Below are positions 10,479 through 62,003 of a stretch of DNA of 64,000 nt, piece after piece (positions within the stretch are counted from its first letter, which is position 1; each line of letters opens with the position of its first letter). This DNA is from Patescibacteria group bacterium. Lineage in GTDB: Bacteria > Patescibacteriota > Patescibacteriia > UBA9570. A model generated the notes under the pieces. The model was not told where the DNA came from. It ran no database searches and saw nothing but the letters and a program-made list of their open reading frames with translations. The DNA is taken from contig JBAYIY010000004.1 in the NCBI GenBank assembly GCA_041665365.1, positions 8,610 through 72,609 on the forward strand. Reading direction: 5' to 3'. The translations under genes and the position numbers were made by a program.

Positions 10479-10510
10479 ATTTGTGTGGACACAAAAAGTG
10501 TTCAGAACTA

Positions 10511-10539
10511 TTGACGTAATATACTATTGCTAGTATCAT
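10511..10539 (+). promoter_or_regulatory. Sigma70-like promoter upstream of ftsZ (TTGACG-17 bp-TATCAT)
   Basis: Read directly: ttgacg at 10511-16 and tatcat at 10534-39, with a 17-bp spacer. Confidence 0.4.
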
Positions 10540-10580
10540 TGGCAATTGTATAACTTAGCATTGAACAAAAAAAGTGTTAT

Positions 10581-11735
10581 ATGGCTAATGGTAAATATGT
10601 AGAAGTTAAACCTGATGTAGAAACATTCGCAAAGATTCTTGTGGTGGGCGTTGGTGGCTCCGGTGGCTCTGCCGTTTCCCGCATGATTGACAGTGGTTTA
10701 AAAGGGGTTGAATTTGTCGCTATTAACACCGATGCCCAGGCTTTACACCATAATCCAGCTAAGAACAAAATCCATATTGGTAAGAGTACAACTCGCGGTT
10801 TAGGTGCCGGTATGGATCCTGCCATTGGAGCGAAAGCCGCTGAAGAAACTAATGAAGAATTAACCGCCATGCTCAAGGGAGCGGATATGGTGTTTGTGAC
10901 CTGTGGTTTAGGTGGTGGTACTGGGTCTGGGGCTGGTCCTATTATTGCTCGTTTAGCGCGTGATGCCGGTGCGTTAACAGTAGCCGTTGTAACCAAACCA
11001 TTTCAATTTGAAGGAGCGCAACGTAACCAAATTGCCGATGCCGCTTATAATGAAATGGCCGATGCGGTGGATACAATTATCACCATTCCAAATGATCGCT
11101 TGTTACAAATTATTGATAAGAAAACATCTTTACTTGATGCCTTTAAAACTGTCGACAATGTTTTATTTCAAGGTGTGCAAGGAATCTCTGATTTGATTAC
11201 TGTACCAGGTTTAATTAACGTTGACTTTGCTGATGTAAAATCGGTTATGGCCAACGCCGGTTCGGCCTTGATGGGGATCGGTAAAGCCACGGGTGAGAAT
11301 CGAGCTGTAGAGGCAGCTAAATCAGCCGTTGATAGTCCATTATTAGAATTGAGTATTGATGGAGCTAAGGGTATCTTGTTTACCATCACTGGTGGACCAA
11401 ATTTGAGTATGTACGAAGTCAATGAAGCCGCTCGGGTGATTACTGAATCGGCTGATCCATCCGCCAAGATTATTTTTGGATCCAATGTTGATGAATCTTT
11501 AGGTGATGAAGTTAAAGTAACGGTCGTAGCGACTGGTTTTGGTCAACCAGCCAAAGCCGCCAAAAAAATTCAAGCTGTGCGCCAAACGCCATTTAGCAAA
11601 CGCGAAGATAAAGATATGCCCGTTGCAACCAGTAATACTTTCCGCAACAAAAATATCATGGACGAAGCTCCCGTAGATAATTCCTCCGATGAAGATTTAG
11701 AGGTACCGGCCTTCATTCGGAAGAAGATGATGTAA
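10581..11735 (+). CDS. ftsZ: Cell division GTPase FtsZ
   Basis: Tubulin signature 'GGGTGSGAGPIIA'. 'VVGVGGSGGSAVSRM'. Confidence 0.95.
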   Translation: MANGKYVEVKPDVETFAKILVVGVGGSGGSAVSRMIDSGLKGVEFVAINTDAQALHHNPAKNKIHIGKSTTRGLGAGMDPAIGAKAAEETNEELTAMLKGADMVFVTCGLGGGTGSGAGPIIARLARDAGALTVAVVTKPFQFEGAQRNQIADAAYNEMADAVDTIITIPNDRLLQIIDKKTSLLDAFKTVDNVLFQGVQGISDLITVPGLINVDFADVKSVMANAGSALMGIGKATGENRAVEAAKSAVDSPLLELSIDGAKGILFTITGGPNLSMYEVNEAARVITESADPSAKIIFGSNVDESLGDEVKVTVVATGFGQPAKAAKKIQAVRQTPFSKREDKDMPVATSNTFRNKNIMDEAPVDNSSDEDLEVPAFIRKKMM

Positions 11736-11752
11736 GGAACAACAATTAACAT

Positions 11753-11794
11753 AAAACTGGTAGAGACATGCCATGGCATGTCTCTACCAGTTTT
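11753..11794 (+). terminator. 42-nt perfect palindrome (aaaactggtagagacatgcc|atgg|catgtctctaccagtttt) after ftsZ. It is flanked by an A-tract and a T-tract, so it can act as a bidirectional intrinsic terminator. It belongs to the GTAGAGAC palindrome family.
   Basis: Reverse-complement identity checked base by base. T4 follows on the + strand and A4 precedes. Confidence 0.7.
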
Positions 11795-11860
11795 ATGTGT
11801 GTCAATATGTTTTTTATTATGGTTTATTTATGGCAGATGATCTATACTAACTGACGAACT

Positions 11861-12334
11861 ATGATCTGCCCAGCCTGTTTATTTACGGATACAAAAGTGG
11901 TCGATTCGCGTGACATGGATGATGGCATGGCGATTCGACGGCGACGGGAGTGTCCGAAATGTGAGTTTCGTTTTTCCACCAAAGAACAAGTCGAAATTCT
12001 TAACTTGACGGTAAAAAAGCGGGCTGGTCGAATGGAACCGTATTCTACAGAAAAAATTACCCGTGGTTTACACATTGCCTTAGAAAAACGTCTTAAAGAT
12101 GACGAACGGTTTAAGAAACTTGTAGCGGGGATTGAGCGGGATATTCAAATTGCCGCCACTAGCGAAGATGTGATTGAATCAAAGGCGATTGGGGATATCG
12201 TGATGCGTCATTTGAAAAAAATTGATAAAATAGCCTATATCCGATTTGCTTCAGTGTATCAAGATTTTGAAGATTTATTATCCTTTCAGGAAGAAGTTGA
12301 GCGCCTAATGAACAAACATAAGAAAAAAACTTAA
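11861..12334 (+). CDS. nrdR: Transcriptional repressor NrdR
   Basis: N-terminal Zn-ribbon 'CPACLFTDTKVVDSRDMDDGMAIRRRRECPKCEFRFST' followed by an ATP-cone. About 157 aa. Confidence 0.9.
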   Translation: MICPACLFTDTKVVDSRDMDDGMAIRRRRECPKCEFRFSTKEQVEILNLTVKKRAGRMEPYSTEKITRGLHIALEKRLKDDERFKKLVAGIERDIQIAATSEDVIESKAIGDIVMRHLKKIDKIAYIRFASVYQDFEDLLSFQEEVERLMNKHKKKT

Positions 12335-12342
12335 AAACCACT

Positions 12343-12915
12343 ATGCATATTCATCCTAAGCCAACCAAGTCACATCAGCCAAAGAAAAAATTAGGTTATC
12401 TTCATCTCTATACCGGCGCGGGTAAAGGTAAAACCTCAGCGGCTTTGGGTGTTTTGTTACGCGCGGCTGGGCAAGGCCATCGTGTCTTGATGATTCAATT
12501 TTTAAAGGGGCACAAAGATGCCGGTGAGTTTCTAGCCTTTCAGAAATTAGGGTCTAATATCGAAATTGTTCAATTTGGTCGAGCTGATTTATTGTCACTC
12601 GATGCACTTCAAGCCGCTGATGCTTATTTTACGAAACAAGGTTTAGATTATGCTCGCCAGGCGATGCGCAGTAAACAACGCCCGGATGTTCTAATCTTAG
12701 ATGAAATTACCTCAGCGGTGCACTATGGTCTATTGCCAATTGAAGAACTGGTTGATTTTCTTGATAATCGTCACCGTGAAACTGAAGTAGTTCTAACCGG
12801 CGCTGAAGCGCACCCGGCGCTCTTTAATCTGGCCGATTTAGTGACCGTGATGCAACCGGCTAAGCATTATTTCAATTACGTCAACTTTGCCCCTAGGCTT
12901 GGTATTGAACATTAG
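12343..12915 (+). CDS. cobA: Cob(I)yrinic acid a,c-diamide / cob(I)alamin adenosyltransferase (CobA/CobO/BtuR family)
   Basis: P-loop 'LYTGAGKGKTSAALG' and 'MIQFLKG', typical of the BtuR/CobA family. Lies directly upstream of the B12-dependent RNR. Confidence 0.75.
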   Translation: MHIHPKPTKSHQPKKKLGYLHLYTGAGKGKTSAALGVLLRAAGQGHRVLMIQFLKGHKDAGEFLAFQKLGSNIEIVQFGRADLLSLDALQAADAYFTKQGLDYARQAMRSKQRPDVLILDEITSAVHYGLLPIEELVDFLDNRHRETEVVLTGAEAHPALFNLADLVTVMQPAKHYFNYVNFAPRLGIEH

Positions 12916-22232: not shown

Positions 22233-22380
22233 AAAATATGTTTATTAAAAATAAAATTCCCAATTTATAGGGAATACAGCCTGTATTCCCTACGCTGGCA
22301 TAACCCAGATCAGGTAATGTAAGGATACTTCTCAGTCCATAAGGACGCTCCTATACAGTGCTATCATATTACCAGTTGAG

Positions 22381-23737: not shown

Positions 23738-26504
23738 CGTTCAGTATCAGTTATTAAACCCGGAACAGGTTCGGGCGGTTGATCATGTCGATGGCCCGAT
23801 GTTGGTTTTGGCTGGAGCCGGTACGGGTAAAACTCAGATTATCGCTCTCAGGATAGCCCGTTTGTTGCAAACCCAGGATCTTAAACCCAGTAATATACTG
23901 TGCTTAACCTTCACTGAAAGTGGAGTCCAGGCTATGCGGCAACGTTTAGTTAGCCTACTGGGTTCAATTGGCTATCAAGTGCGAGTGCATACCTTTCATA
24001 GTTTTTGTAACGAAGTGATTATTGATCATCCGGAGTTATTTGTCGCCCAAGCGGCTTTACAACAAATCACCGATTTGGATCATATTACTTTAATTCAGGA
24101 GATCATCGAAACGCTTCCAGCTGATAGTTTATTAAAACCATTCGGCGCACCGGATTTTTATATTTCTGAAATTGTCCACGCCATTCAAACCCTAAAACGT
24201 GAACATGTCTCACCGGATGATTTAGCCAAATTTGAACTAACCGAAAAGCAGCAAGCTTTAGTAGAAGTGTATCGCGCCTATCAGGTAAAATTGCAAGATC
24301 AACAACTCTATGATTATGAAGATATGTTGTTGCACGTTATCGCTGTTTTTAAAAAAGACCCAGATTTGTTAGCTGAGTATAGAGAACAGTATTTGCATTT
24401 ATTAGTGGATGAATATCAAGATACCAATAATGCGCAAAATGAAATTATTAACTTATTGGCAGGGAATGATCCGGCGCCTAATGTATTTGTGGTGGGGGAT
24501 GATAAACAATCGATTTACCGATTTCAAGGCGCGGCCTTAGAAAATATTTTATCGTTCCAACACCGCTATGGCAAAGCCGCTAAATTAATCAGTTTACAGC
24601 AAAATTATCGCAGCCAACAATGGATACTGGATGCCGCCAGTGCCGTGATTGATCACAATGAACAAAGTTTAGCCAAATATATTCCAGAATTAAAATCTCA
24701 CTTAAAGTCGGCGCGTGATTTACCAACTGTTCCACTAGAAATAGCTACGTTAAGCTCGCCCAGTACAGAACTATTTTGGGTTGGGAAACGCATTCAGGCG
24801 CTATTAGCTAACGGTGTGGCTCCGGAAGAAATCGCTGTGTTGTATCGAACTAATAGTGACGGTGAAGCCATCTTAGAAACGCTCAGACAATTAAATATAC
24901 CAGTGCATAGTGTGTCGGGACGAAATATTTTATCCGATCCATTAATTCAACAATTATTGCGGTTATTTCAATATATTTCTTACGGTGATAGCGACGCGAA
25001 TTTATTTAGCTTAGTGCATGCTCGTTGGCTGGGATTACACAATGATAAACTTCTCCAATTAACCGATCCGGTAATTACAGAATTTAAGCAGCGTGTGGTT
25101 CATTGGCGCAGTGCAATGCATAATGATTTGTGTACGGAGTGGTTTACTCAGATAGTGAACGAATCTAGTTGGTTACGCTATGTGCTGCAACACGATCATG
25201 CGATTGAGCATCTAAACCGATTAAGTAGTTTGTATCATGCCGTCGTCAATTTAACACGCCGTGAACCAACTATTACTATTAAGAATGTGTTAGATTATTT
25301 TCAGTTATTACAACACCATGATCTAACTTTAGAAGAAGAACCGTTATCCACTCAGGCCAATGCTGTACAACTTATGACCGCGCATCGAGCCAAAGGGTTA
25401 GAGTTTAAACATGTGTTTATGATTCATTGTCGCGATAAACACTGGGGTAACGTACCGGATCGCAGCAAATTAAAACTACCCGAAGGCATTATTCAATTAA
25501 GCGCTGAGTTGGCCAAGCATGAACGCAATGAAGATGAGCGGCGCTTATTTTATGTGGCCATGACGCGCGCTAAAGAACATTTATATTTAAGTGTGGCTAA
25601 ACAATCCGCTACCGGCCGTGCCCTGATGCCAAGCCAGTTTTTAAATGAATTACCGAGTGATATTGTAAAACCGGCTGATGGTGTAGCCGAGGTTGAAGCT
25701 GAACCGATCGAGCGTTTGCAACTGACTCTTAGCCAGCCTAAAGTTGTTATAGAAACCAATCAAGTTTATCTTAAGAGTTTGCTAGAGAATTATCGAATGA
25801 GTGCCACGCACTTGAATGATTATTTGGAGTGTCCGATCAAGTTTTTGTATCAAGATTTATTACGTGTACCGCAAACCATGTCACGCGCCGTTGGGTTTGG
25901 AGTAGCCATGCATAACACTTTAAAGGAGCTGCCGAGCCAAGCGGATGTGTTTTTAATATTTAAAAGAGAACTTGAAAAACAATTAATGAGTAAAAAAGAT
26001 TTTAAAGATAGTTTAGATTTTGGTGAAAAGTTGCTAGACAAATATTACCCGGTGCATTATGAGTTTTTGCAAAAAAACAAGTTTATGGAGAAAGACTTTA
26101 AACCGTATAATTGTCTGGTCGGGGAAGTGCCCATTGTCGGAAAAATTGATGCGATTCAAGTGGTTGATGAAGCCAGTAAACAAATACATGTGATCGATTA
26201 TAAAACCGGCAATCCGGATAATAAAAGTGCCAATTTGGCCGTGGGTGGATCTTATTACCGTCAATTAGTGTTTTATAAATTACTCTGTGACGCCGCTGGT
26301 GATTTTGGTTATACCCCTGTGTCAGGCGAAATTCACTTTATTCAGCCGAGTAAAAAGAAACAACAATTTGTGCATCGGCGGTATGAGTTTAGTGACGACG
26401 ATGTGAAACAGGTGACCACTGAATTAGTGGAGACTTATCAACACATTCAAAATCTAGAATTCTCAACTGGTTGTAATGACTGCGAATGGTGCAAGTTATT
26501 ATAG
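23700..26504 (+). CDS. UvrD/PcrA-family SF1 helicase fused to a C-terminal PD-(D/E)xK (RecB/Cas4-like) nuclease with a Cys cluster
   Basis: Walker A 'LAGAGTGKTQ'. 'VDEYQDTN' (helicase motif II). C-terminal 'IDAIQV...HVIDYKTG' nuclease motif and a terminal 'CNDCEWC' four-Cys cluster. Confidence 0.8.
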   Translation: MMPTAKLSSNLIDVQYQLLNPEQVRAVDHVDGPMLVLAGAGTGKTQIIALRIARLLQTQDLKPSNILCLTFTESGVQAMRQRLVSLLGSIGYQVRVHTFHSFCNEVIIDHPELFVAQAALQQITDLDHITLIQEIIETLPADSLLKPFGAPDFYISEIVHAIQTLKREHVSPDDLAKFELTEKQQALVEVYRAYQVKLQDQQLYDYEDMLLHVIAVFKKDPDLLAEYREQYLHLLVDEYQDTNNAQNEIINLLAGNDPAPNVFVVGDDKQSIYRFQGAALENILSFQHRYGKAAKLISLQQNYRSQQWILDAASAVIDHNEQSLAKYIPELKSHLKSARDLPTVPLEIATLSSPSTELFWVGKRIQALLANGVAPEEIAVLYRTNSDGEAILETLRQLNIPVHSVSGRNILSDPLIQQLLRLFQYISYGDSDANLFSLVHARWLGLHNDKLLQLTDPVITEFKQRVVHWRSAMHNDLCTEWFTQIVNESSWLRYVLQHDHAIEHLNRLSSLYHAVVNLTRREPTITIKNVLDYFQLLQHHDLTLEEEPLSTQANAVQLMTAHRAKGLEFKHVFMIHCRDKHWGNVPDRSKLKLPEGIIQLSAELAKHERNEDERRLFYVAMTRAKEHLYLSVAKQSATGRALMPSQFLNELPSDIVKPADGVAEVEAEPIERLQLTLSQPKVVIETNQVYLKSLLENYRMSATHLNDYLECPIKFLYQDLLRVPQTMSRAVGFGVAMHNTLKELPSQADVFLIFKRELEKQLMSKKDFKDSLDFGEKLLDKYYPVHYEFLQKNKFMEKDFKPYNCLVGEVPIVGKIDAIQVVDEASKQIHVIDYKTGNPDNKSANLAVGGSYYRQLVFYKLLCDAAGDFGYTPVSGEIHFIQPSKKKQQFVHRRYEFSDDDVKQVTTELVETYQHIQNLEFSTGCNDCEWCKLL

Positions 26505-26557
26505 TGTGCTAATATAAATTTATTAATTAAGTTAATTTTTAATTGGGGAGGACAATT

Positions 26558-27010
26558 ATGAAAAAAATTACAAAAATGCTATTCGTTGTTAGTTCGTTGT
26601 TCGCTGTTACTAGTTGGTTTATGCCAATGTCAGCCTATGCTTTTGTACCGTCTAATTTGGAGGGTCGATACAATGGTGATTGGGAATTGCTTGATGGCGG
26701 GTTGTGCTATACAGCCGGTGCCACGGGCAATATTGTCATTAGAATTGTGGACATGGACGCTAATGGAACAATTAATGATGCGCGAGTAAAATTTTCCGAT
26801 GAAGCGCAAACTCCAGCGGAACTTGGTACGGGTCGTATTTTTATGCGTAACGGAGTACGGCGCATTCGTTTAAATTATGATATTGCCGGTTATGACCGAT
26901 ATATTAAAGGTAGATTAACCAGAACCAGAAAGATTAAAGGTAATTATTATCATGCCGCCTCAGATGATAGTTGCATTTGGTCAGGATCAGTTAGCGCCAG
27001 TCATATCTAA
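26558..27010 (+). CDS. Small secreted hypothetical protein (signal peptide)
   Basis: 'MKKITKMLFVVSSLFAVTSWFMPMSAYA' signal peptide. The rest is unassigned. Confidence 0.45.
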   Translation: MKKITKMLFVVSSLFAVTSWFMPMSAYAFVPSNLEGRYNGDWELLDGGLCYTAGATGNIVIRIVDMDANGTINDARVKFSDEAQTPAELGTGRIFMRNGVRRIRLNYDIAGYDRYIKGRLTRTRKIKGNYYHAASDDSCIWSGSVSASHI

Positions 27011-27778
27011 AAATTGTTTATGAGCAGCCACATCGTGCACCCGTAACCAGGCGGCACCATGTTGGACGGCTATAAAATGGGCTGCCAGCGTACCTGGTAG
27101 CCTGTTTTGTATATCAGCGCCGGTTAATTTACCGATAAATGATTTGCGTGATGCCCCCACCATGACGGGTTTTTTTCCGAACACAGCAATGTTTTTAATC
27201 AATGCCAAATTATGTGAGACAGTTTTTCCAAACCCAATGCCAGGGTCTAAAATAATCTTATCTGGTTTAATACCAGATGCAAGACACAGTTTGATTTGTT
27301 GTTTAAAAAAATTATTTACCTCAAAAACGACATTTTTATAACGTGGGTGTTTTTGCATGGTTTGTGGTTCACCTAGCATGTGCATTATTATCACGGTACA
27401 GTGGTGTTGAGCGGCTAACTGGCGCATGGCCGGATCACGCAGGCCGGTAATATCATTTATCCAGGTAGCACCAGCTTGAATGGCCTGTTTGGCTACCTCT
27501 ACTTTGTAAGTATCAATCGAAATGGGTGTGTTGGTTTTTTTATGTAAAGCCTTAATTGCTGGAATAACCCGGTGTAGTTCTTCTTGCAGTGAGACAGGTT
27601 TAGCACCCGGCCGGCTAGATTCACCGCCAATATCAATCACCGCAGCGCCTTCACGCACGAGTTGCAGAGCATGCTGGACAGCTGCGCGAGTGGTTTTTAA
27701 TTGACCACCATCCGAGAATGAATCCGGTGTGACGTTAACGATACCCATTAAATTAACTCTACTTTTTTTCATACTCAA
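26987..27778 (-). CDS. folP: Dihydropteroate synthase
   Basis: 'MGIVNVTPDSFSDGG' pterin-binding motif and a DHPS TIM-barrel-like sequence. Confidence 0.9.
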   Translation of the reverse strand: MSMKKSRVNLMGIVNVTPDSFSDGGQLKTTRAAVQHALQLVREGAAVIDIGGESSRPGAKPVSLQEELHRVIPAIKALHKKTNTPISIDTYKVEVAKQAIQAGATWINDITGLRDPAMRQLAAQHHCTVIIMHMLGEPQTMQKHPRYKNVVFEVNNFFKQQIKLCLASGIKPDKIILDPGIGFGKTVSHNLALIKNIAVFGKKPVMVGASRKSFIGKLTGADIQNRLPGTLAAHFIAVQHGAAWLRVHDVAAHKQFLDMTGAN

Positions 27779-28484
27779 ACAACTTTATTAATTCTTTAGT
27801 AATCTGACCTGGTTTACCAACCGGTACAATCCCCGTAGATGTTTGGGTGATGAAACATTCCGCACTATGTTGGATATCCTGCCAGGTGATTTTCTTAAAC
27901 ACAACGCGATAACGGTTTTTGCACAAATTCAAAACAACTTGTCTAGTGACACCATACAGAATATCTCGATTGGGAGTAATGATAGTATTATTTTTTATGA
28001 TAAATATATTTGCACAGGCACATTCATTACCCAGATAGGCATCAAAACAGCCTTGTTTTAGAGCTAATTCATGTGCTTGATATTCAAATATTCTGGCTAA
28101 AGATTTTATTTTTGGCACAGCTGGTTGATAGGGATAGTTTAATAATTTCACCCCAGTTTTATATATTTTAGAATCTATTTTTAATTCCTCAGACAACACA
28201 TAAATTCTATTTGGTGCCCCAATTACTTTTATTCTTAATTCTTTATTCTTTATTCTTTCATCAGTATGTTTTGAAATATATTGAGTAATCGTTTTCTGAG
28301 AAGCCATTTTTAACCCAATCACCTTAGCTGATTCTTGTAATCTTTTTAAATGAGCCGATAACTGAAACGGTTTACCACCATAGGTTCTAATCGTTTCAAA
28401 CACACCATAAGCACACATAAACTCAGGTTCTTTCCCAGATAAAGAGATTTTTTTTACAAACTGACCGTTTATGGAAATTTTCAT
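27759..28484 (-). CDS. pabC: Class IV aminotransferase fold, probable aminodeoxychorismate lyase
   Basis: Fold-type IV PLP enzyme size and motifs. Embedded between pabB and folP. Confidence 0.6.
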   Translation of the reverse strand: MKISINGQFVKKISLSGKEPEFMCAYGVFETIRTYGGKPFQLSAHLKRLQESAKVIGLKMASQKTITQYISKHTDERIKNKELRIKVIGAPNRIYVLSEELKIDSKIYKTGVKLLNYPYQPAVPKIKSLARIFEYQAHELALKQGCFDAYLGNECACANIFIIKNNTIITPNRDILYGVTRQVVLNLCKNRYRVVFKKITWQDIQHSAECFITQTSTGIVPVGKPGQITKELIKLFEYEKK

Positions 28485-29575
28485 GGTAATAATAATCTGG
28501 CTTTAGTTAGGGTTTCTTGATACTCTTTGGCTGGAGTAGATGCCAACGTAATACCACCCCCAACGTAATAATGCAATTGATTGTCTCGCAGAGTAGCCGT
28601 GCGAATCGCGATATTAAATTCAGCTTGATTACGCCCGGCGATATAACCCATCGCGCCACAATACACATCGCGGGGTTGAGTTTCTAAATCTTGTAATATT
28701 TCTACCGCCCGTTGTTTAGGCGCCCCCGTCACTGAACCAAATGGTAACATCACTTTTAATACATCGAGTATATTGTAGTGTTTGTCTTTCATACCTTGAA
28801 TCACCGCTTGAGCTTGATAAACCGTTTTGTATTTAATAATTTCCCGTCGTTTTTTTACCACCACACTTCCCGGCAGACACACTCGATTCAAATCATTGCG
28901 GTGCACATCAATAATCATATCCAACTCGGCTTTTTCTTTGGCACTGGAAAGTAGCTGTGATCTTGGTGAAGACACCGACGCAGTTCCTTTCATTGGTTTT
29001 GTCTCCAATAAATTATTATTTAGTCTTATCCCTAATTCCGGAGAGTTACAAACTATTTGGTGATCGGGAGTAGTAATGATAGCCGCATAAGGGGTTGGTT
29101 GATTGTGTAATAAACGGTAAGCAATTTGCTCAAGACTAGCCCGTGTTTTACCAGATAATCTATAGCAGTAATTAGCTTGATAAATATCCCCAATACTTAA
29201 ATGGTGAATAATTTTATTAATGGCTTTTTTATATTGAGAATAATTTGGGTAAGATAGTTTTATCTTAAATGGTGTTGGATTCAACAGGGTCTGTAAAGAT
29301 ACTGGTTTGAAACGATCAAATATTCCAAAATACACTTGATCCTGTTCATAGTTGATAAAGCCAATAACTAGTTGATGTCTAGCCGCACCAGAACAATACC
29401 ATTTTTTTAATTGTAGCCACGAGGTGATTAGACCATGATAACCATCACCTTGATATGCACGTGTCTTATCGATCAAGACAAAGCGATAAGAATTCATGTC
29501 TCGTATTTTGGTTGATTTTAAATAAGCCGCGAAATGATGATGTCGTAACAATGGTGTTTTGTTTTTCCACGCCAC
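28481..29575 (-). CDS. pabB: Aminodeoxychorismate synthase component I (chorismate-binding enzyme; short form)
   Basis: C-terminal chorismate-binding blocks 'GSVTGAPK', 'GAMGYI', 'GGGIT'. The start is uncertain: the track ORF overlaps folE by 110 nt, and the internal Met at 29497 is an alternative. Confidence 0.65.
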   Translation of the reverse strand: MAWKNKTPLLRHHHFAAYLKSTKIRDMNSYRFVLIDKTRAYQGDGYHGLITSWLQLKKWYCSGAARHQLVIGFINYEQDQVYFGIFDRFKPVSLQTLLNPTPFKIKLSYPNYSQYKKAINKIIHHLSIGDIYQANYCYRLSGKTRASLEQIAYRLLHNQPTPYAAIITTPDHQIVCNSPELGIRLNNNLLETKPMKGTASVSSPRSQLLSSAKEKAELDMIIDVHRNDLNRVCLPGSVVVKKRREIIKYKTVYQAQAVIQGMKDKHYNILDVLKVMLPFGSVTGAPKQRAVEILQDLETQPRDVYCGAMGYIAGRNQAEFNIAIRTATLRDNQLHYYVGGGITLASTPAKEYQETLTKARLLLP

Positions 29576-30023
29576 GCGCTTGCATGCATAAATGAGTGGC
29601 TTCTAGCACCACACCAATCCCTTTGGCTTGTAAGGCGTGATCTAAAAACTCAGTTATTTGTGAGGTTAAACGTTCTTGATTTTGTAATCGGCGCGCAAAT
29701 ACTTCCACTATTCTGGGCAATTTTGATAAACCAATAATCTTAGATTGTGGGATATAACCAATGTGTGCCTTGCCGTAAAACGGTAATAAATGATGTTCAC
29801 AAGTTGAATAGAAATCAATCGCTTTGCACGTCACCATTTCATCGTAGTGTTCACTATCAAAAAAAGTTAACAACGAGGCCGGATCAATATCGTATCCAGC
29901 AAATAATTTGTGATAACTTTTAGCTACTCGGGCTGGAGTGTCTTTTAACCCTTCCCGCGCTGGTGCTGGATCTATCTCTTTTAGAAGTTGGGCAATCAGA
30001 GTTTCAATTTTAGTTTGGTTCAT
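29466..30023 (-). CDS. folE: GTP cyclohydrolase I
   Basis: 'CEHHLLPF' Zn-binding motif of GCH-I (FolE type I). Confidence 0.9.
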   Translation of the reverse strand: MNQTKIETLIAQLLKEIDPAPAREGLKDTPARVAKSYHKLFAGYDIDPASLLTFFDSEHYDEMVTCKAIDFYSTCEHHLLPFYGKAHIGYIPQSKIIGLSKLPRIVEVFARRLQNQERLTSQITEFLDHALQAKGIGVVLEATHLCMQARGVEKQNTIVTTSSFRGLFKINQNTRHEFLSLCLDR

Positions 30024-30531
30024 ATAGTTTTACTTGGAGTGTATCCGGACAGTTATCTAATAATTGTTTAATAGTTTTACCAGACCGGGGTTCTATTATT
30101 AATTGTGCGACATCTGATAGTGGTTGAAGAAAAAAATTTCTATCAGCCAAAGCCCGATGAGGGATAATTAACTCATCCGACGCTAGTACTGTATCGTTAT
30201 ATAGTAAGATGTCAATATCAATTTCACGATCAGTGTAGCCGGGGTATGGTTTGCGGCCTAAAGCCTGTTCGATTTGTTTACAGCTCGCTAACAAAATATC
30301 TGGTTCCAGTGAAGTATCTAACACCACCACTTGGTTTAAGTGCCAACCGTGGGCACTAGCCCCAAGTGGCTCGGTTTCATAAATGGGTGATAATTCTATA
30401 ACTCGGCCACACTGTTCTAAGGCGGTGATAGCGCGATCCAAATAATCAAGGCGCGGTTCGATGTTACTGCCGATGCCCAGGTAAGCCCGCATTAGCCGGT
30501 GTAGGTTACTGATGATGTGTCTGTTTCCCAA
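30010..30531 (-). CDS. folK: 6-hydroxymethyl-7,8-dihydropterin pyrophosphokinase
   Basis: 'YLGIGSNIEPR...ETEPLG' HPPK motifs. 173 aa. Confidence 0.85.
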   Translation of the reverse strand: MGNRHIISNLHRLMRAYLGIGSNIEPRLDYLDRAITALEQCGRVIELSPIYETEPLGASAHGWHLNQVVVLDTSLEPDILLASCKQIEQALGRKPYPGYTDREIDIDILLYNDTVLASDELIIPHRALADRNFFLQPLSDVAQLIIEPRSGKTIKQLLDNCPDTLQVKLYEPN

Positions 30532-30839
30532 AGCTGAATGGTTGTTACTGGTATATATTTCTTTAATTCAGTAAATATCCATTCAGCCACTAGCTCACAA
30601 GTTGGATTAGAAAATCTGTCATTTAAATTTGTATGATCCAAAATATCTAGTATGTGTTTTTTTACCAGATTTTTTAATTCCGTAAAATCTATCACTAGAT
30701 CATCATTGTTTAATGGCCCAGTGACAGTAACAGCCAGACGATAATTGTGACCATGTAAATTTTCACATTTACCATGATATTTTGTCAAGAAATGTGCAGC
30801 CGAAAAAGTAAACTCTTTAGTAACACTAATTGTTGTCAT
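30492..30839 (-). CDS. 6-pyruvoyl-tetrahydropterin synthase family protein (QueD/PTPS). In this folate cluster with no folB visible, it is a candidate PTPS-III acting as a dihydroneopterin-aldolase replacement.
   Basis: 'FSAAHFL...CENLHGHNY' carries Cys and Glu just upstream of the HGH Zn motif. 115 aa. Confidence 0.6.
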   Translation of the reverse strand: MTTISVTKEFTFSAAHFLTKYHGKCENLHGHNYRLAVTVTGPLNNDDLVIDFTELKNLVKKHILDILDHTNLNDRFSNPTCELVAEWIFTELKKYIPVTTIQLWETDTSSVTYTG

Positions 30840-32520
30840 AAAAACTCAGGCTGTCGGCCATAGATTGTAAATCGGTTTTATCGGTTTCTTTCAAACCAGC
30901 ATCGCGTTGCACAGTAAATAAATAAACCGTGTTGTTATGTAAAAGAGCCGCTTCAGCGTTGATAGAATTAGTAATCATACCATCGGGGCGATTTACACTT
31001 AACCATTGGTTGAGTGTTATACCGGGTGCGCTGTACGGTTTAAGCGTGATACTGTAGCCAGTCCAGGCGGTACTGGAGAGAAAGGTAGTTTCGGTAGAAT
31101 AAAATACTATAGTGCCGTCCGGTAAAATTTTACCAGTGAGATTACTTGGGTGTAAAACCGTAAATAGATCGGTGCTAAAAAATTTCCGCGTGGGTTGAAT
31201 AGCACCCAGTTTGGCCAGTTGTATATAATTATTACCTTGATCGGTGAGATTAGTCTTAATGGCATTATCAACGCGCCAAATTACATTACCGGTATCATCT
31301 TTTATTACCAGTGTTACCGTTGGCACATCAGGAAATGTAGCAAAGATGGTTTTTAGGGTATCCAAGAATGTGGTTTCAACCGGTGGTTTATAAACGAATT
31401 CAACATACAAACCTTGATCAGTGGTCGTGAAACGATATGTCTTAAGATCGATCTTTAACTTAGCCACGATGTTTCTTATTGTATTATTGTAGTTATCCCA
31501 TTCATCAGCGGTGGTAGTAAATGTACCGGTTGTGGTTGGAGTGCTTGGAATATCTGGTTCAATTGTAACTGGTAGTGAGCTATAACTGGGTTGATAGGCA
31601 AAGGCCGTTAACTTACCAGCGGTTTTGGCTGGGACTTCCTGAGTAATTTGATTGAAGCGATTATAAGCTAACCAAGTATTGCGCCAGGGGTGAAAAAATA
31701 ACCATTGACTACCATCCGTTGACCAAACCACTACTGGTACACCAACCCGATCTAATATTTTATGTTCTTCGGCTTTTGTCCCATCGCGTTGTAACACCAA
31801 AACATAGGGTGAAAACGGTTCAGGATTTTGCGTTGCACTAGTTACTACTAATCCAAACTCATTAGCTGTAATCCAACTTAATGAATGAAACTCATAAAAC
31901 GGTAAACTAATCGAGTTATATAACTCCGCGCCAGCTAAATCAACCGAAATAATTTTTTGACTATTTTCCACAAAAGCCATTTCACTACCGTCAGGTGCAA
32001 ACACTAGTTGATCATACAGTGCTCCAGTTGTGCCGGTATAAATAATTTTATCTTCGGCTGTAGCAATAGTATATAAATGTAATTGTTCGTTACTAAACCA
32101 AGCTACATACAATTCTGCTGAATCAACCGCTATAGCTTGAGGTTGAATGGACAGTTGACCAATTGTTCTTGTACCGGATGATTCGTGTAGAGACATTACA
32201 CCATTGGTCACACCATACCAATGATTAGTCGCGAGCAGATAATTGCTCAGTAATTCTTGGCTTTGATCAGATAAAGCCAGACTGGCCGTACTGGCAGTAT
32301 CGGTCGCGTAAACCGTTTTACCGGTCTCACTGGTACTAAGAAAAACCACTAGGCCGGCACTAATATCCAAAAAAGTTTTTTGGTCGATCGGCTCTACTGC
32401 TGCGTTTACCGCGGGGGGTGGTGTGGTAGTGGAATGTGGCCATAACCACCAAATAATCCCGGCAATTACAAGCAAACCAGAGGCAAGCACGATAAATATT
32501 AACACCCGTTGGCGATCCAT
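30826..32520 (-). CDS. Membrane-anchored hypothetical protein (564 aa), with a probable extracytoplasmic beta-rich domain
   Basis: N-terminal TM 'VLIFIVLASGLLVIAGIIWWLW'. No family assigned. Confidence 0.4.
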   Translation of the reverse strand: MDRQRVLIFIVLASGLLVIAGIIWWLWPHSTTTPPPAVNAAVEPIDQKTFLDISAGLVVFLSTSETGKTVYATDTASTASLALSDQSQELLSNYLLATNHWYGVTNGVMSLHESSGTRTIGQLSIQPQAIAVDSAELYVAWFSNEQLHLYTIATAEDKIIYTGTTGALYDQLVFAPDGSEMAFVENSQKIISVDLAGAELYNSISLPFYEFHSLSWITANEFGLVVTSATQNPEPFSPYVLVLQRDGTKAEEHKILDRVGVPVVVWSTDGSQWLFFHPWRNTWLAYNRFNQITQEVPAKTAGKLTAFAYQPSYSSLPVTIEPDIPSTPTTTGTFTTTADEWDNYNNTIRNIVAKLKIDLKTYRFTTTDQGLYVEFVYKPPVETTFLDTLKTIFATFPDVPTVTLVIKDDTGNVIWRVDNAIKTNLTDQGNNYIQLAKLGAIQPTRKFFSTDLFTVLHPSNLTGKILPDGTIVFYSTETTFLSSTAWTGYSITLKPYSAPGITLNQWLSVNRPDGMITNSINAEAALLHNNTVYLFTVQRDAGLKETDKTDLQSMADSLSFYDNN

Positions 32521-32554
32521 GGCAGCAATTATATCATTATGCTAATGTACTGTC

Positions 32555-33649
32555 ATGCAAAATATGTTAGAGCGCATTAGTACGATTGGTGAGCAATTAA
32601 ACATTGCCGGCATGCGGGCTAAAGTAGCCACCCTTGAAGCGGAAATGGCGCAGCCCGAGTTTTGGCAAAATCAATCTCATGCCCAAACGGTTAGCCGAAC
32701 CGTGAATGATTTGCGTAAAGAAATTCAAACCTGGGATGACTTGAAAGTGAGTTTGAAAAATCTCCAAGAGATGGCTGATTTAAATCAAACCGAGCCGGAT
32801 CCTGAAATTACCGCCGAACTAGAACTCCAACGCACCGCACTCACCAAACAGTTTACCGAATTAGAGTTTCATTTACTCTTCGGTAAAAAATATGATGATG
32901 CTTCGGCCGTGGTGGCCATTCACGCTGGCGCTGGTGGAGTAGATGCACAAGATTGGGCCGAAATGTTGATGCGTATGATGTTGCGTTATTGTGAACAAAA
33001 AGGTTTTGCCGTGTCTGTGCTTGAAGTGGCACGTGGTAATGAAGCTGGCATAAAATCGGCGACACTGGAAGTAACCGGGCGCTATGCTTATGGTTATTTA
33101 AAAAGTGAACACGGTGTGCATCGCCTCGTGCGGCAATCACCGTTTAACGCTGATGCTTTGCGCCAAACCTCTTTTGCTTTGATTGAAGTGTTACCTGAAC
33201 TGGGGGAATCATCGCCCGTGGAGATTAAAGATGAAGATTTGCGCATCGATGTGTATCGAGCTGGTGGCAAAGGCGGCCAAGGTGTTAATACCACCGATTC
33301 TGCCGTACGCATTACCCATTTAGCCACCAACATCGTGGTCACTTGCCAAAATGAACGCTCGCAACATCAGAACAAAGCCACCGCCATGAAAATCCTGCGC
33401 GCGAAATTACACCAGTTACAACTCCAAGCTGAACAAGCCGAAAAATTAAAACTCAGAGGCGAATACACGTCCGCCGAATGGGGGAATCAAATTCGCTCGT
33501 ATGTGTTACATCCTTATAAGATGGTAAAAGATCATCGTACCGATTATGAAGAATCCGACCCCGACGCAGTGTTAAATGGAAAACTGGAAGGGTTTGTTGA
33601 GGCGTATTTACGTAAGACGGTAGATGCGCGGGTGACGAATGAGGTTTAG
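32555..33649 (+). CDS. prfB: Peptide chain release factor 2, encoded without the programmed +1 frameshift
   Basis: 'SPF' tripeptide motif, 'GGQ' motif ('GGQGVNTTDSAVRITH'), full-length 364-aa single ORF. Confidence 0.85.
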   Translation: MQNMLERISTIGEQLNIAGMRAKVATLEAEMAQPEFWQNQSHAQTVSRTVNDLRKEIQTWDDLKVSLKNLQEMADLNQTEPDPEITAELELQRTALTKQFTELEFHLLFGKKYDDASAVVAIHAGAGGVDAQDWAEMLMRMMLRYCEQKGFAVSVLEVARGNEAGIKSATLEVTGRYAYGYLKSEHGVHRLVRQSPFNADALRQTSFALIEVLPELGESSPVEIKDEDLRIDVYRAGGKGGQGVNTTDSAVRITHLATNIVVTCQNERSQHQNKATAMKILRAKLHQLQLQAEQAEKLKLRGEYTSAEWGNQIRSYVLHPYKMVKDHRTDYEESDPDAVLNGKLEGFVEAYLRKTVDARVTNEV

Positions 33650-43403: not shown

Positions 43404-43568
43404 ATGAATGTACAGCTAAACGATCCAACTTTTGATGAATTGTGCGAAAAAATTGCTCAGGGCAAAGCCACACCTAGTGACATGGAAGCGGCGTTTAAAT
43501 CTTTGAATAGTGACATTGATGCCTTTTCAGCAGATGTCCAAGATCAGCTTTATAAGAATAAAAAATGA
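43404..43568 (+). CDS. Small protein (54 aa), translationally coupled (ATGA overlap) to the following 421-aa gene
   Basis: ORF 'MNVQLNDPTFDELCEKIAQGKATPSDMEAAFKSLNSDIDAFSADVQDQLYKNKK'. Its stop overlaps the start at 43565. Confidence 0.4.
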   Translation: MNVQLNDPTFDELCEKIAQGKATPSDMEAAFKSLNSDIDAFSADVQDQLYKNKK

Positions 43569-44830
43569 GCCACGAAAAAACTCGTCCACCGTTACCACGA
43601 CGAAGTGAGCCAAGGCAAGATACACCAAGGACAGGTGAGGCTACACCTGAAACGTTGCGGGCTTATCTTGATCATCTGGCTGAATCCAGCCGCCGTTTTG
43701 ACAGTGCTTTGACGCATTATCACACTTTATTGCAAGAACAAGATCAAGCCGAAGGAAATTTAATAACGCTGGAGCAACAATATCAAAATGAACAACGATT
43801 TGCGTTACTTAAAGCTAAGGCAACAAAGCTAGCCTGGGCGACAATACGTTATGTCACCTCTAGTACCATTGTAGGAGCAGGCAGTGGTGCAGCAGCCCAT
43901 ATGTTAAGTGGCGATCCGTCTTTCACTATTTTAGCTAGTGCTGGTGGAGCCATGGTTGGATCAGCGCTAGAGTTTGGTTTATCACATCTGGAAGAAACTA
44001 ATGATTACTCAGATAAATTTTTTGAGTTATATGAGCCGACGCAAGCATATATGCAAGATAAAAAACGGCGTGAACAAAATAAAGACGATAACCCTACCAA
44101 CCGTGAGGCCGAAATTAAATTGTTAGTAGAACAACTATCTGCTTTACAAACAGACATCGCTAACCTTGAAAAAGAAATTGATGATATCGGCAGTAGCGGC
44201 CAGGCCTTATTCAAAGACCCACGAGCACCGCTTCCCACTGCAGATCCAGCACGGTCAGAAGCTGAGGCGGCGGTGCGAGCTTTGGCGGAACATTTACGCA
44301 CAGCTGGCCAACGTTTAAATGAACTCTTAGCACAGTATTTTGAAATGACCGTGGTGGCCGAGAGTGCTGAACATTATTTGGCGGCACGTCAACAAATTTA
44401 TGATCGTAGTAAGGCAGCCGTGCAAATACGAGTGACTGCGCGCCAAGCTTGGGAGATGTTGAAAACAGCTCATATGACTCTCAGTGCAGCTGGTATTTTA
44501 GGGATGGCTGGCTATATCTATAATGCAGGTCAACCAGGTTCTAATGTACCTATGGCGGTATTAGGTGGAGCGGTCGGATCAGCCATAGGTTGGTTTCAAA
44601 TTTCTCGTTTGGAGAAAAAAGTTTGGCATAAAAATATACCCCATGGTCAATACGAGATTAGTGATCAATTAGCGGTGCGAGAAGATTATCAGTTGGCCAC
44701 TGATCCAGCCTTACAAGAGGCCGAAGCACTGTTAACTGAGGCACAATTACACCGGCAGCAAATGCAAGCTGAACAAGCTAAATTATCTGCCGAGCTTGAG
44801 GCCTTCATGGCTAAGTATCCAATGAAGTGA
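43565..44830 (+). CDS. Hypothetical 421-aa protein with long coiled-coil segments and four glycine-zipper-like (GxxxG/SxxxG) hydrophobic stretches, possibly membrane-inserting. Its GC content is higher than its neighbours.
   Basis: 'VGAGSGAAAHMLSG', 'ASAGGAMVGSALEFG', 'AAGILGMAGYIYNAG', 'AVLGGAVGSAIGWF'. Heptad-like Q/E/L-rich stretches. Confidence 0.45.
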   Translation: MSHEKTRPPLPRRSEPRQDTPRTGEATPETLRAYLDHLAESSRRFDSALTHYHTLLQEQDQAEGNLITLEQQYQNEQRFALLKAKATKLAWATIRYVTSSTIVGAGSGAAAHMLSGDPSFTILASAGGAMVGSALEFGLSHLEETNDYSDKFFELYEPTQAYMQDKKRREQNKDDNPTNREAEIKLLVEQLSALQTDIANLEKEIDDIGSSGQALFKDPRAPLPTADPARSEAEAAVRALAEHLRTAGQRLNELLAQYFEMTVVAESAEHYLAARQQIYDRSKAAVQIRVTARQAWEMLKTAHMTLSAAGILGMAGYIYNAGQPGSNVPMAVLGGAVGSAIGWFQISRLEKKVWHKNIPHGQYEISDQLAVREDYQLATDPALQEAEALLTEAQLHRQQMQAEQAKLSAELEAFMAKYPMK

Positions 44831-44846
44831 CATATTTAAATTTCAT

Positions 44847-44875
44847 TTGACAGCACTAATTTTTTGTAGTATCAT
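44847..44875 (+). promoter_or_regulatory. Sigma70-like promoter (TTGACA-17-TATCAT) upstream of the Bro-N gene
   Basis: Read directly. Confidence 0.4.
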
Positions 44876-44923
44876 CATCAATGATAGCGCCAACCAGAGC
44901 GCTTTTTATTTATAAACAATCCT

Positions 44924-45736
44924 ATGTCACCATCTAAAATTGCCTTATTTAAAGGTAAACAAATCAGAAAAACGTTCTATCACAAGGAATGGTGGTTTGT
45001 TATTAATGATGTAATCGAGTCTCTGACAGACTCCAGTGATCCGGCTCAGTACTTTAAACGTTTAAAATCTAGAGATGAGGAGCTAGCGGATCTGATCAAC
45101 AAAGGAGGGGTACAATTTGTACCACCCCTTATGCTGGCCATAGATACTACAGGAGGTAAACAAAAAATGTATTGTTGGCATACAGAAGGCCTCTTTCGTC
45201 TGGTTCAATCTATATCGTCACCAAAAGCTGAACCCTTTAAACGATGGTTAGCTAGAGTAGGTTATGAGCGCATTCAAGAAGTAGAAAATCCAGAATTGGC
45301 GACTAAACGAACTCGGATGTTGTACAAACTTAAGGGCTATAGTTCAGCCTGGATCGAAAAACGCCTTCGTGGTATGGCCATCCGTGAAGAATTAACCGAT
45401 GAATGGAAAAATCGCGGTGCTTCCGAGCAGCAAGATTATGAAATCTTAACAGCAGAAATTTCTAAGTCTACCTTTGGAGTAACACCACATGAGTACAAAA
45501 AACTCAAAGGTTTGAAACGTCAAAATCTACGTGATCATATGAATGACTTTGAACTGATTTTTAATATGCTTGGTGAACGCACAACCACAGAAATTCATCG
45601 TCTAGAAAATTCACAAGGTGTTCCAAAACTACGTAAAGACGCGAGAGCTGGTGGAGACGTTGCTGGTAATGCTCGACAACACTTAGAAAAACGCTTGGGT
45701 CGATCGATTGTGTCAAAAAATAACTTTTTAAAATAA
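44924..45736 (+). CDS. Bro-N domain protein (phage antirepressor-like) with an unassigned C-terminal half
   Basis: N-terminal 'FKGKQIRKTFYHKEWWFVINDVIESL...WHTEGLFRLVQSISSPKAEPFKRWL' matches the BRO-N pattern. Confidence 0.6.
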   Translation: MSPSKIALFKGKQIRKTFYHKEWWFVINDVIESLTDSSDPAQYFKRLKSRDEELADLINKGGVQFVPPLMLAIDTTGGKQKMYCWHTEGLFRLVQSISSPKAEPFKRWLARVGYERIQEVENPELATKRTRMLYKLKGYSSAWIEKRLRGMAIREELTDEWKNRGASEQQDYEILTAEISKSTFGVTPHEYKKLKGLKRQNLRDHMNDFELIFNMLGERTTTEIHRLENSQGVPKLRKDARAGGDVAGNARQHLEKRLGRSIVSKNNFLK

Positions 45737-45760
45737 TGTGATTCGTGATACATTCCTTCT

Positions 45761-45922
45761 ATGAATACTCTTACAACAACAAAAATTTGTCTGGCCTGTC
45801 GGCATGTATCCACCAATACTACCGACACCGCCTGCATGCAATGTGGTATGATGCTGGAAGAACAGTGTCCAAATTGTAAATTACCTAAATCGGAATGTGT
45901 ATGCCCAGAGAACCAGAACTAA
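45761..45922 (+). CDS. Small Cys-rich Zn-ribbon-like protein (53 aa), not in the supplied ORF track
   Basis: 'MNTLTTTKICLACRHVSTNTTDTACMQCGMMLEEQCPNCKLPKSECVCPENQN' carries four CxxC-type pairs. Codons counted directly. Confidence 0.4.
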   Translation: MNTLTTTKICLACRHVSTNTTDTACMQCGMMLEEQCPNCKLPKSECVCPENQN

Positions 45923-47013
45923 AACGGTTGCCACCTACTCATACTGAAAGAACTCCCCGTGAAGAATCAGGACAAATACAACCACGTGAGGTTGAAGCGC
46001 GGTCTTGGTGGAAAAAATTAATTGAACGTCATGTTAGCGAAGCATCAATTCCGGGTGTGGCCAATGGTATTGAACGTAGTACTTATGTGGCACCTAATAA
46101 ACCGGAAGATGAAGCTGTAATTATTCGTGAACGCATACTGTCAGGTAAATTAGTCGGTGTCACTCAAGTTCAGTTTAATCCAAAATCTGGTAGCGTTAGT
46201 GAGTATCGTCGCGAAACACCACAGGGGCAACCTTTGCGTGTGGTAGAAACCAATGACGCTGGTTGGTTGGATCAAGTCTATTCATATCAGGCACCCGGCA
46301 GAATTGCTCTGCAACAATATGATCATGAGCATAATGTGGTCTGGGATGGCACAATTACTCAAAGAGATGGGAGAGAAGTTGAAACCAGGCAAGCTACAGC
46401 CAACACTTTTGGTCAGATAGCAAGTGGTGTATTAGCAGATTGTAAAAGTATGGTGATTCAACGTGTGGGCACACGAGTTGATGGTGAAATCATAGAAGAT
46501 ATTATGGGTTTTAAACCGAACCAAGTTAAATTTACTGATGCCAGTAAGGGGCATGTCAATGTACACCGTGAAACTGTTATTATAGGAGGCAAACTTAGAA
46601 AAGAAAAAGTCACTGAATCAGTTGGTTCGGAAAGAAAAAGATATGTTACTTATACGAAACGACATGAGAGTGAATTAGATAGGCAAGTTGATGAAACCAG
46701 TGGTAATGTTATGAGATCTTATGAAATTAAAAAGCGCTACGATGATAGAGGCTCCATGGTCGAAACCAGAGAAACTACTGAGACGTTTACCGCCTCTGGT
46801 AAATTAGATCATAAAGAACTAAAGTTTAGTATAGGCGGCCGTGACTCTGTAGCACAGACCAACTATCAATATGACCAAAACTATCAATTGGTACTCATTG
46901 AAGAAATCGGTTTTGATGGTGTCACTAAACGCTATCATCGTGCCCCAAGAGGTACAAAAATACCAGAAGAAAAAGAACATTCTAGTGAATCTGGTTTTAT
47001 ATTGGTTGAATAA
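45895..47013 (+). CDS. Hypothetical charged protein (372 aa). The start is uncertain; it may begin at the TTG at 45927 after the Zn-ribbon ORF.
   Basis: Long ORF. No recognisable motif. Lys/Glu/Arg-rich. Confidence 0.45.
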   Translation: MCMPREPELKRLPPTHTERTPREESGQIQPREVEARSWWKKLIERHVSEASIPGVANGIERSTYVAPNKPEDEAVIIRERILSGKLVGVTQVQFNPKSGSVSEYRRETPQGQPLRVVETNDAGWLDQVYSYQAPGRIALQQYDHEHNVVWDGTITQRDGREVETRQATANTFGQIASGVLADCKSMVIQRVGTRVDGEIIEDIMGFKPNQVKFTDASKGHVNVHRETVIIGGKLRKEKVTESVGSERKRYVTYTKRHESELDRQVDETSGNVMRSYEIKKRYDDRGSMVETRETTETFTASGKLDHKELKFSIGGRDSVAQTNYQYDQNYQLVLIEEIGFDGVTKRYHRAPRGTKIPEEKEHSSESGFILVE

Positions 47014-59756: not shown

Positions 59757-59922
59757 GTTCTGTTTTTGAGGCGCTTTTTTGTGCCTTAAAAACAAGCTAT
59801 TTGTCACGGTTTTTCGAGTCCTTTGACAATTTATCAATGTAAAGAATTAAAAAAACCATATATTTCTGTTTGGTTTGAAATATACGGTGCAGGTAGATCG
59901 AAATGAATAACCGAACCATCCC

Positions 59923-59976
59923 ACCCCCTGTCCTGGTAGAGACGCGATTAATCGCGTCTCTACCAGGACAGGGGGT
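59923..59976. repeat. 54-nt perfect palindrome (acccccctgtcctggtagagacgcgattaatcgcgtctctaccaggacagggggt), a longer copy of the 59657 element
   Basis: Verified base by base. Confidence 0.8.
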
Positions 59977-60095
59977 ACCGGGACGTCGGTTATTAATCTC
60001 GGTCTATCTGTGAGCCTTATCCAGGGGACGGTTGGGGCAATGATGCTCTGATCACACTGGGTGGGGTTTGGTCACAAAAACCGAAAGGAGAGGCC

Positions 60096-61993: not shown

Positions 61994-62003
61994 GGGAGAT
62001 TTC

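Follow-up and report, generated by a model that had tools for sequence, protein, structure and literature searches.

The question raised by this locus is how a bacterium of the Patescibacteria, or candidate phyla radiation (CPR), might complete the pterin branch of folate synthesis without dihydroneopterin aldolase (FolB). The window, by which we mean the whole 64,000-nucleotide stretch of contig JBAYIY010000004.1 analyzed here (positions 8,610 to 72,609), carries on its minus strand a set of genes that an earlier note had named as six overlapping genes in the order PTPS/QueD-like, folK, folE, pabB, pabC, and folP. A protein of the 6-pyruvoyltetrahydropterin synthase (PTPS) family was thought to replace FolB in this set. 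Judged from sequence, it is quite likely that these genes constitute a dihydropteroate operon native to a CPR bacterium, in which a PTPS-I/III hybrid would act in the place of FolB.

Organization of the gene cluster

Between positions 30839 and 26987, the minus strand carries six intact open reading frames (ORFs) arranged head to tail, and both outer coordinates are exact. The PTPS gene at 30492..30839 encodes a protein of 115 amino acids (aa), which its signature places in the PTPS-I/III hybrid type and which matches PF01242 at E = 4.3e-35 over profile positions 2-119 of 121. It is followed by folK at 30010..30492 (160 aa, hydroxymethyldihydropterin pyrophosphokinase; HPPK PF01288, E = 5e-32) and by folE at 29466..30023 (185 aa, type 1 GTP cyclohydrolase I; GTP_cyclohydroI PF01227, E = 8e-70). 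Next come a pabB-like gene at 28481..29497, which encodes a short chorismate-binding enzyme of 338 aa (Chorismate_bind PF00425, E = 8e-71), and a pabC-like gene at 27759..28484, which encodes a class IV pyridoxal phosphate (PLP) enzyme of 241 aa (Aminotran_4 PF01063, E = 4e-36). The last gene is folP at 26987..27772, coding for a dihydropteroate synthase whose length is 261 or 253 aa according to which start codon is used (Pterin_bind PF00809, E = 3e-87). Three of the products scored above the cut-offs of their NCBIfam equivalog models, namely FolK (TIGR01498, 114.3 versus 54.1 bits), FolE (TIGR00063, 226.7 versus 181.6 bits), and FolP (TIGR01496, 341 versus 162.6 bits). Six enzymes of the same pathway placed end to end at such E-values are far beyond chance.

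The junctions between these genes were derived from the gene calls on the source contig and from the DNA sequence itself. The PTPS and folK genes meet at TAATG with an overlap of 1 nucleotide (nt), the folK ATG sharing one base with the PTPS stop codon. The overlap amounts to 14 nt between folK and folE, to 32 nt between folE and the pabB-like gene (which starts at the ATG at 29497 and not at the GTG at 29575), and to 4 nt between the pabB-like and pabC-like genes. Two gene callers differed on the start of folP, and the final junction is therefore either an overlap of 14 nt (ATG at 27772) or a gap of 10 nt (ATG at 27748). The ORFs, their order, and their coordinates bear out the earlier description, with overlaps of mostly 1-32 nt.

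The G+C content of the cluster (0.37-0.40) matches that of the contig. A foreign or chimeric insert was considered unlikely on the basis of this match and of the flanking genes, from prfB to a UvrD-type helicase, which are common to other CPR contigs.

Active site of the PTPS protein

Residues 25-31 of the PTPS protein read C25-E26-N-L-H29-G-H31 (CENLHGH) and are preceded by HGK, which agrees with the earlier observation that both Cys and Glu stand beside the HGH motif. In an alignment of 18 diverse homologues, H16, C25, E26, H29, H31, D68, H69, and E105 were invariant. H16, H29, and H31 are assigned as the zinc triad and D68, H69, and E105 as the catalytic Asp-His/Glu residues on the model of QueD and PTPS structures. 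The zinc-binding His, the Asp-His, and the Glu residues align with their counterparts in E. coli QueD, which carries Gly in place of Glu26. QueD also gives the best match among solved structures (E. coli QueD, PDB 3QN0 and 4NTM; E = 6e-17). The CExxHGH motif was present in 119 of the 120 best database homologues, and the remaining one possessed the Glu without the Cys.

The published signatures distinguish PTPS-II (CxxxxxHGH), PTPS-III (ExxHGH), QueD/PTPS-I (CxxxHGH), and a hybrid (CExxHGH), according to a paper on this family (PMC5041015). The same paper, citing Phillips et al. 2012 (ACS Chem Biol 7:197), reports that CExxHGH hybrids are functional in both the folate and the queuosine pathways. 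The bypass, as outlined in a second source, converts dihydroneopterin triphosphate directly to 6-hydroxymethyldihydropterin and needs a Glu that replaces or accompanies the Cys (PMC5615194). The PTPS of the window carries the PTPS-III signature (E26-N-L-H-G-H) together with the Cys. By signature, this protein is a PTPS-I/III hybrid and not a pure PTPS-III. The proposal of the earlier note that a PTPS-family protein replaces FolB stands for the folate role, which the evidence supports, and is refined as to the type.

Gene neighborhoods of related PTPS proteins

For comparison, 80 loci were collected by scanning a single genome for each GTDB species with the peptide GKCENLHG as seed; these loci carry the hybrid motif by construction and are uninformative on the frequency of the Glu overall. 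Neighboring genes within 10 kb were identified by local phmmer searches with the window proteins and with QueC, QueE, and FolE2 seeds, the identity of the seeds being checked against Pfam. The best PTPS match in the scan was 64% identical to the window protein, whose own species is absent from the scanned collection. Folate genes adjoined the PTPS gene in 15 of the 80 loci, mostly from Patescibacteria, Peregrinibacteria/Peribacteria, and Gracilibacteria. The queuosine genes queC and/or queE were found in 9 loci (Acidobacteriota, Elusimicrobiota, Omnitrophota, KSB1, and Nitrospirae), FolE2 was the only such neighbor in 6 loci of various lineages, and no locus (0/80) combined fol and que genes.

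The order PTPS-folK-folE-(pabB-pabC)-folP was maintained in four related CPR loci (L007, L087, L088, and L089). Three of these (L087-L089) lie on long contigs, encode PTPS proteins 69-76% identical to that of the window, and share its flanks, namely prfB, a protein of 658-672 aa without a family, and a UvrD-type helicase. Across the orthologues, the identity was 64-76% for PTPS, 74-81% for FolE, 56-70% for FolP, and 40-54% for FolK, PabB, and PabC; because of these values, we regard the fol genes as being under purifying selection and not as decaying. A pseudogenized remnant was ruled out, all ORFs being intact and 42-81% identical to their orthologues.

Linkage to folE alone would suit a QueD protein equally well. 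In the CPR loci L008, L009, L010, L012, and L032 and in the archaeal locus L022, the PTPS gene lies beside folP/folK with no folE within 10 kb. Because PTPS adjoins folP/folK without folE, the FolE product shared with the queuosine pathway cannot explain the linkage. In a neighbor-joining tree, which for this 115-aa protein carries no support values and gives a rough picture only, the window PTPS groups with those of L087, L088, L089, and L007, all of which are fol-linked, and the que-linked sequences sit in another part of the tree.

In eight loci from non-CPR or unclassified sources (L011, L029, L030, L035, L037, L039, L058, and L063), a gene for FolE2, a type 2 GTP cyclohydrolase I (PF02649), directly follows the CExxHGH PTPS gene, and L011 and L030 also possess folP and folK. 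The PTPS-FolE2 pairing represents this bypass module in a zinc-independent form.

Genes not found in the annotated region

Annotation covered approximately 71 kb, corresponding to positions 284,671-355,925 of the 365,132-bp source contig (ENA assembly ERZ27249449, contig k141_1447249), whose positions 292,506-356,505 give the window when reverse-complemented. The Pfam labels of the genes called in this region included no FolB (PF02152), second PTPS, FolC, or FolA, and the cluster itself contains no dihydroneopterin aldolase, as the earlier note had remarked. Labels for QueC, QueE, QueF, and Tgt were likewise absent among these genes. Searches with the QueC, QueE, and FolE2 seeds across the same region (L001, L005, L006, and L090) returned no match even at E <= 10, and neither queC nor queE was found within 10 kb of the PTPS gene in any CPR locus examined. 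No class I glutamine amidotransferase (PabA) was found in the annotated region or in L087-L089.

The proposed p-aminobenzoate branch

The PabB-like protein comprises 338 aa compared with about 450 and aligns with the PabB and TrpE structures in PDB only from residue ~85 (their residue ~190 onward). Because only this part aligns with solved PabB/TrpE, its N-terminal domain is much reduced. In alignment, the Lys of its PMKGT motif falls on that of PIKGT in E. coli PabB (1k0e), and the corresponding motif is PIAGT, with Ala, in TrpE (1qdl), B. subtilis PabB (7pi1), and the Stenotrophomonas enzyme (4grh). In E. coli PabB this Lys, K274, is the nucleophile specific to aminodeoxychorismate synthase of the E. 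coli type. In the PabC-like protein, the Lys of PKIKSL aligns with the PLP-binding Lys of PNIKSL in class IV enzymes.

The pabB-pabC pair recurs inside the fol clusters of several CPR lineages. We propose that the pabB-like gene encodes component I of aminodeoxychorismate synthase. The pabC-like gene is proposed to encode aminodeoxychorismate lyase, on the basis of the 4-nt overlap with pabB and of the conserved pairing. Because no PabA is encoded nearby, ammonia is probably the nitrogen donor of PabB.

One member of the clade departs from this arrangement. In L088 (JGI 3300014208, contig Ga0172379_10003100), positions 10001-12397 carry PTPS-folK-folE-folP without pabB-pabC, which suggests that in part of the clade the pterin half alone is made and p-aminobenzoate (pABA) is salvaged.

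Proposed pathway

FolE would convert GTP to 7,8-dihydroneopterin triphosphate, whose side chain the CExxHGH protein would cut directly to yield 6-hydroxymethyl-7,8-dihydropterin, skipping both the dephosphorylation and the FolB step. The NudB/FolQ dephosphorylation step would be dispensable because the PTPS, if the bypass holds, acts on the triphosphate. FolK would then pyrophosphorylate 6-hydroxymethyl-7,8-dihydropterin. In the other branch, the PabB-like protein, probably with ammonia, and the PabC-like lyase would convert chorismate to pABA, and FolP would condense the pterin and pABA halves to 7,8-dihydropteroate. The subsequent glutamylation and reduction (FolC and FolA) would have to be encoded elsewhere or otherwise supplied. 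The sequence shows the gene identities, the active-site motifs, the operon layout, and its persistence among relatives; what the PTPS catalyzes, the use of ammonia by PabB, and the lyase activity of PabC are inferred.

Alternative explanations

Several observations weigh against a dihydropteroate operon with a FolB bypass. The PTPS retains the Cys of QueD (Cys25 of CxxxHGH) and passes the NCBIfam QueD equivalog TIGR03367 with 100.4 bits against a cut-off of 89.25. The motif-based choice of the comparison loci and the unsupported tree count on the same side, as does the general description of CPR bacteria as biosynthesis-poor in a recent survey (PMC11974145). The annotated region, moreover, belongs to a genome of probably 0.6-1.2 Mb, the remainder of which may or may not encode FolB, QueC/E, FolC, FolA, PabA, and the shikimate pathway; that folB is missing there is an inference. 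A source of chorismate is not evident, as the Pfam labels of the annotated region include no shikimate-pathway enzymes. The best NCBIfam models for the PabB-like protein were all below cut-off (TIGR00553, 250.8 versus 328.4 bits), and the PabC-like protein matched PabC, branched-chain, and D-amino-acid transaminase models, all below cut-off and the PabC models far below; its nearest solved structures are branched-chain aminotransferases. The QueD score is shared by the explanation that the PTPS is a QueD only, which clusters with folate genes through the shared FolE product and leaves the aldolase step to a FolB or another aldolase encoded elsewhere. NCBI labels a near-identical protein and the nearest PTPS relatives QueD, and a PTPS-III assignment has proved capable of being wrong in Rickettsia (PMC5615194). 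PTPS-III was rejected there on four grounds: the active-site Glu and pabB/pabC were missing, the fol genes were eroded, and the que pathway was conserved (PMC4674097 versus PMC5615194). Unlike in Rickettsia, the active-site Glu and pabB/pabC are present here and the fol genes are intact, which reverses the first three grounds; the que pathway was looked for locally only. Furthermore, the PTPS stop codon overlaps the folK start, several lineages have PTPS flanked by folP/folK with no folE nearby, and no que gene is close, and we therefore regard an exclusively QueD function as improbable.

A protein that serves both pathways, making 6-hydroxymethyldihydropterin for folate and 6-carboxytetrahydropterin for queuosine or another 7-deazaguanine, is a more serious possibility, though still the less probable one, and is compatible with the dihydropteroate operon. 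Because Cys25 is retained, the PTPS may also make 6-carboxytetrahydropterin if queE/queC exist elsewhere; Cys25 and Glu26 occur together, hybrids are reported to function in both pathways (PMC5041015), the QueD cut-off is passed, and CExxHGH homologues stand beside queC/queE in the five non-CPR lineages named above. The absence of que genes from the annotated region and from within 10 kb in the CPR loci examined, and the position of the que-linked homologues elsewhere in the tree, argue against it. The earlier note held that a folB elsewhere together with queCEF would make the protein a QueD. This test is weaker than stated: since hybrids reportedly act in the two pathways alike, queC/queE elsewhere would not reduce the protein to a mere QueD. 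The Pfam family name and weak matches to mammalian PTPS structures could point to a classical PTPS-II of biopterin synthesis, for which we see virtually no chance. The CxxxxxHGH signature is absent, the Cys standing four residues before HGH and not six (neither this protein nor any one of the 120 homologues has a Cys at six), no sepiapterin reductase is encoded nearby, and the neighbors are all folate genes; this reading was rejected on the motif. Finally, the pabB-like and pabC-like genes might lie outside the pABA branch, with products such as an enzyme of the anthranilate or isochorismate type and an aminotransferase for branched-chain or D-amino acids; pABA would then be salvaged and the cluster would supply the pterin branch only. 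The below-cut-off scores and the nearest structures of the PabC-like protein favor this view, as do the L088 cluster and the lack of PabA and of a chorismate pathway in the annotated region. We consider it rather unlikely, given that PabB models are nevertheless the highest-scoring ones in NCBIfam for the first gene, that its Lys aligns with that of E. coli PIKGT where TrpE has Ala, and that the two genes overlap by 4 nt between folE and folP as a recurrent pair in CPR fol clusters. The earlier description of nearly the whole pterin/pABA branch holds for the gene identities and is qualified by the lack of PabA nearby, the short N terminus of PabB, and the PabB and PabC scores.

Upstream gene and probable transcription unit

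The gene preceding the cluster, at 30826..32520 on the minus strand, overlaps the PTPS start by 14 nt and encodes a protein of 564 aa with an N-terminal membrane anchor, to which no function was assigned. This protein had no Pfam or NCBIfam match, and a search of 5.8 billion proteins returned only itself, deposited as a protein of a Patescibacteria group metagenome-assembled genome (MAG). The nearest PTPS relatives come from Patescibacteria, Kerfeldbacteria, and "uncultured bacterium ACD" genomes. The suggestion in the earlier note of a reduced-genome symbiont finds agreement, in the sense of a CPR bacterium, in these relatives and in the identity of the 564-aa protein to the MAG protein. Positional orthologues precede PTPS in L087-L089; they comprise 658-672 aa, are 26-38% identical over the full length, and are much less conserved than the fol enzymes. 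The 564-aa protein appears to be a fast-evolving, lineage-specific surface protein. Its gene is probably cotranscribed with the fol genes and may or may not belong to the pathway.

The best sigma-70-like promoter candidate of the region, identified by consensus match only, is located at 32528..32556 on the minus strand (ATGACA-17-TATAAT with an upstream TG, 11/12). The site ends 7 nt ahead of the start codon of the 564-aa gene and lies within the beginning of prfB, which runs divergently; promoter and terminator counts in this region were no higher than in shuffled sequence. On this consensus match, the transcription unit likely comprises seven genes, namely the 564-aa gene and the six fol genes. 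No convincing terminator was found after folP, and no riboswitch or leader RNA matched Rfam in 26300-33000 even at E <= 1.

Other features of the window

A thiamine pyrophosphate (TPP) riboswitch (RF00059) was detected at 22270-22362 on the minus strand, with 62 bits against a gathering score of 54.3. It lies upstream of genes for a solute-binding protein, a permease, and an ATP-binding cassette (ABC) ATPase (22232-18739, minus strand). These riboswitch-linked ABC genes likely encode a thiamine uptake system, in contrast with the apparent self-sufficiency in folate precursors.

An island of approximately 3 kb at 59900-62900 has a G+C content of 55-67% versus about 40% for the genome. It contains ORFs for a 579-aa multi-pass membrane protein (60096-61835, plus strand) and a 262-aa protein (62004-62792, plus strand), both without a Pfam match, and a RhuM-family gene comes after them. 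A second assembly, Logan SRR6484324, has the 579-aa gene alone on a contig of 2,979 bp (L091). The island may represent an insert that is mobile or was gained by horizontal transfer, or else a join made during assembly. Genes of the RhuM family and genes with a Bro-N domain also occur among several ORFs without a family at 43565-47013 (plus strand) and at 12946-13623 of L090, and these genes may be prophage or mobile-element remnants. A giant gene at 28-6672 (plus strand) extends past the window start; the contig gene call gives 2,372 aa with T4SS_pilin and Big_5 domains. It probably encodes a large protein associated with the cell surface or with pili, a type common in CPR bacteria.

Implications for CPR metabolism and annotation

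Both the FolB bypass and the hybrid signature date in the literature from 2008-2012; the mechanism is thus not new, and the lineage is. In the searchable literature, we found no report of PTPS or a FolB bypass in CPR bacteria or of queuosine in Patescibacteria. According to a Peribacteria genome paper, folate biosynthesis genes were not identified (PMC4736985), and a 2025 survey of 4,581 CPR genomes discusses only folA, glyA, and folD (PMC11974145). Our comparison suggests that more CPR lineages possess the pterin and pABA branches than such accounts imply. The conserved operon suggests that some CPR bacteria make their own dihydropteroate, which would alter what they need from, or give to, a host, and bacteria that make dihydropteroate would be potential targets of sulfonamides. 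The QueD label applied by public pipelines hides a probable folate step, an instance of the same problem with COG0720 paralogues that PMC5041015 describes.

A wider claim would be that this Patescibacteria clade and several Peregrinibacteria/Peribacteria lineages whose clusters are similar are true de novo producers of dihydropteroate or folate, against the usual picture of cofactor auxotrophs capable of folate interconversion only. We hold this to be doubtful. If it were true, the truncated PabB without PabA would need a supply of chorismate that CPR bacteria are not known to have, which implies that a shikimate pathway has been overlooked or that chorismate is taken up from a host. The 564-aa surface protein could then take part in exchange with the host.

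Comparison with known systems

The nearest known counterparts of the window PTPS are the PTPS-I/III hybrids of COG0720, with which it shares PF01242, the CExxHGH motif, a single domain of ~115 aa, and the conserved zinc His and Asp-His pair. Folate genes accompany some of these hybrids and queuosine genes others; here and in the related CPR loci, the gene lies within a fol operon, and no que genes were found in the surroundings covered. The PTPS-III proteins of Plasmodium falciparum and diverse bacteria resemble it in the Glu of ExxHGH, in clustering with folK/folP, and in the lack of FolB in the neighborhood. The reaction proposed here, from dihydroneopterin triphosphate to 6-hydroxymethyldihydropterin, is also theirs (Dittrich et al. 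2008; Pribat et al. 2009, J Bacteriol 191:4158, cited through PMC5041015, PMC3223725, and PMC5615194). Pure PTPS-III has lost the Cys, whereas the PTPS studied here keeps it.

QueD/PTPS-I of E. coli is similar in the Cys of CxxxHGH and in the TIGR03367 model, which the window protein passes. It differs in having Gly at the position of Glu26, and the neighbors of the window gene are fol/pab genes, not queC/queE. The fold itself does not distinguish QueD from PTPS-III. FolB (PF02152) is not homologous to PTPS at the family level and uses dephosphorylated dihydroneopterin, so that it also needs a pyrophosphatase/phosphatase step. The product of the two enzymes would nonetheless be the same, 6-hydroxymethyl-7,8-dihydropterin, which is handed to FolK.

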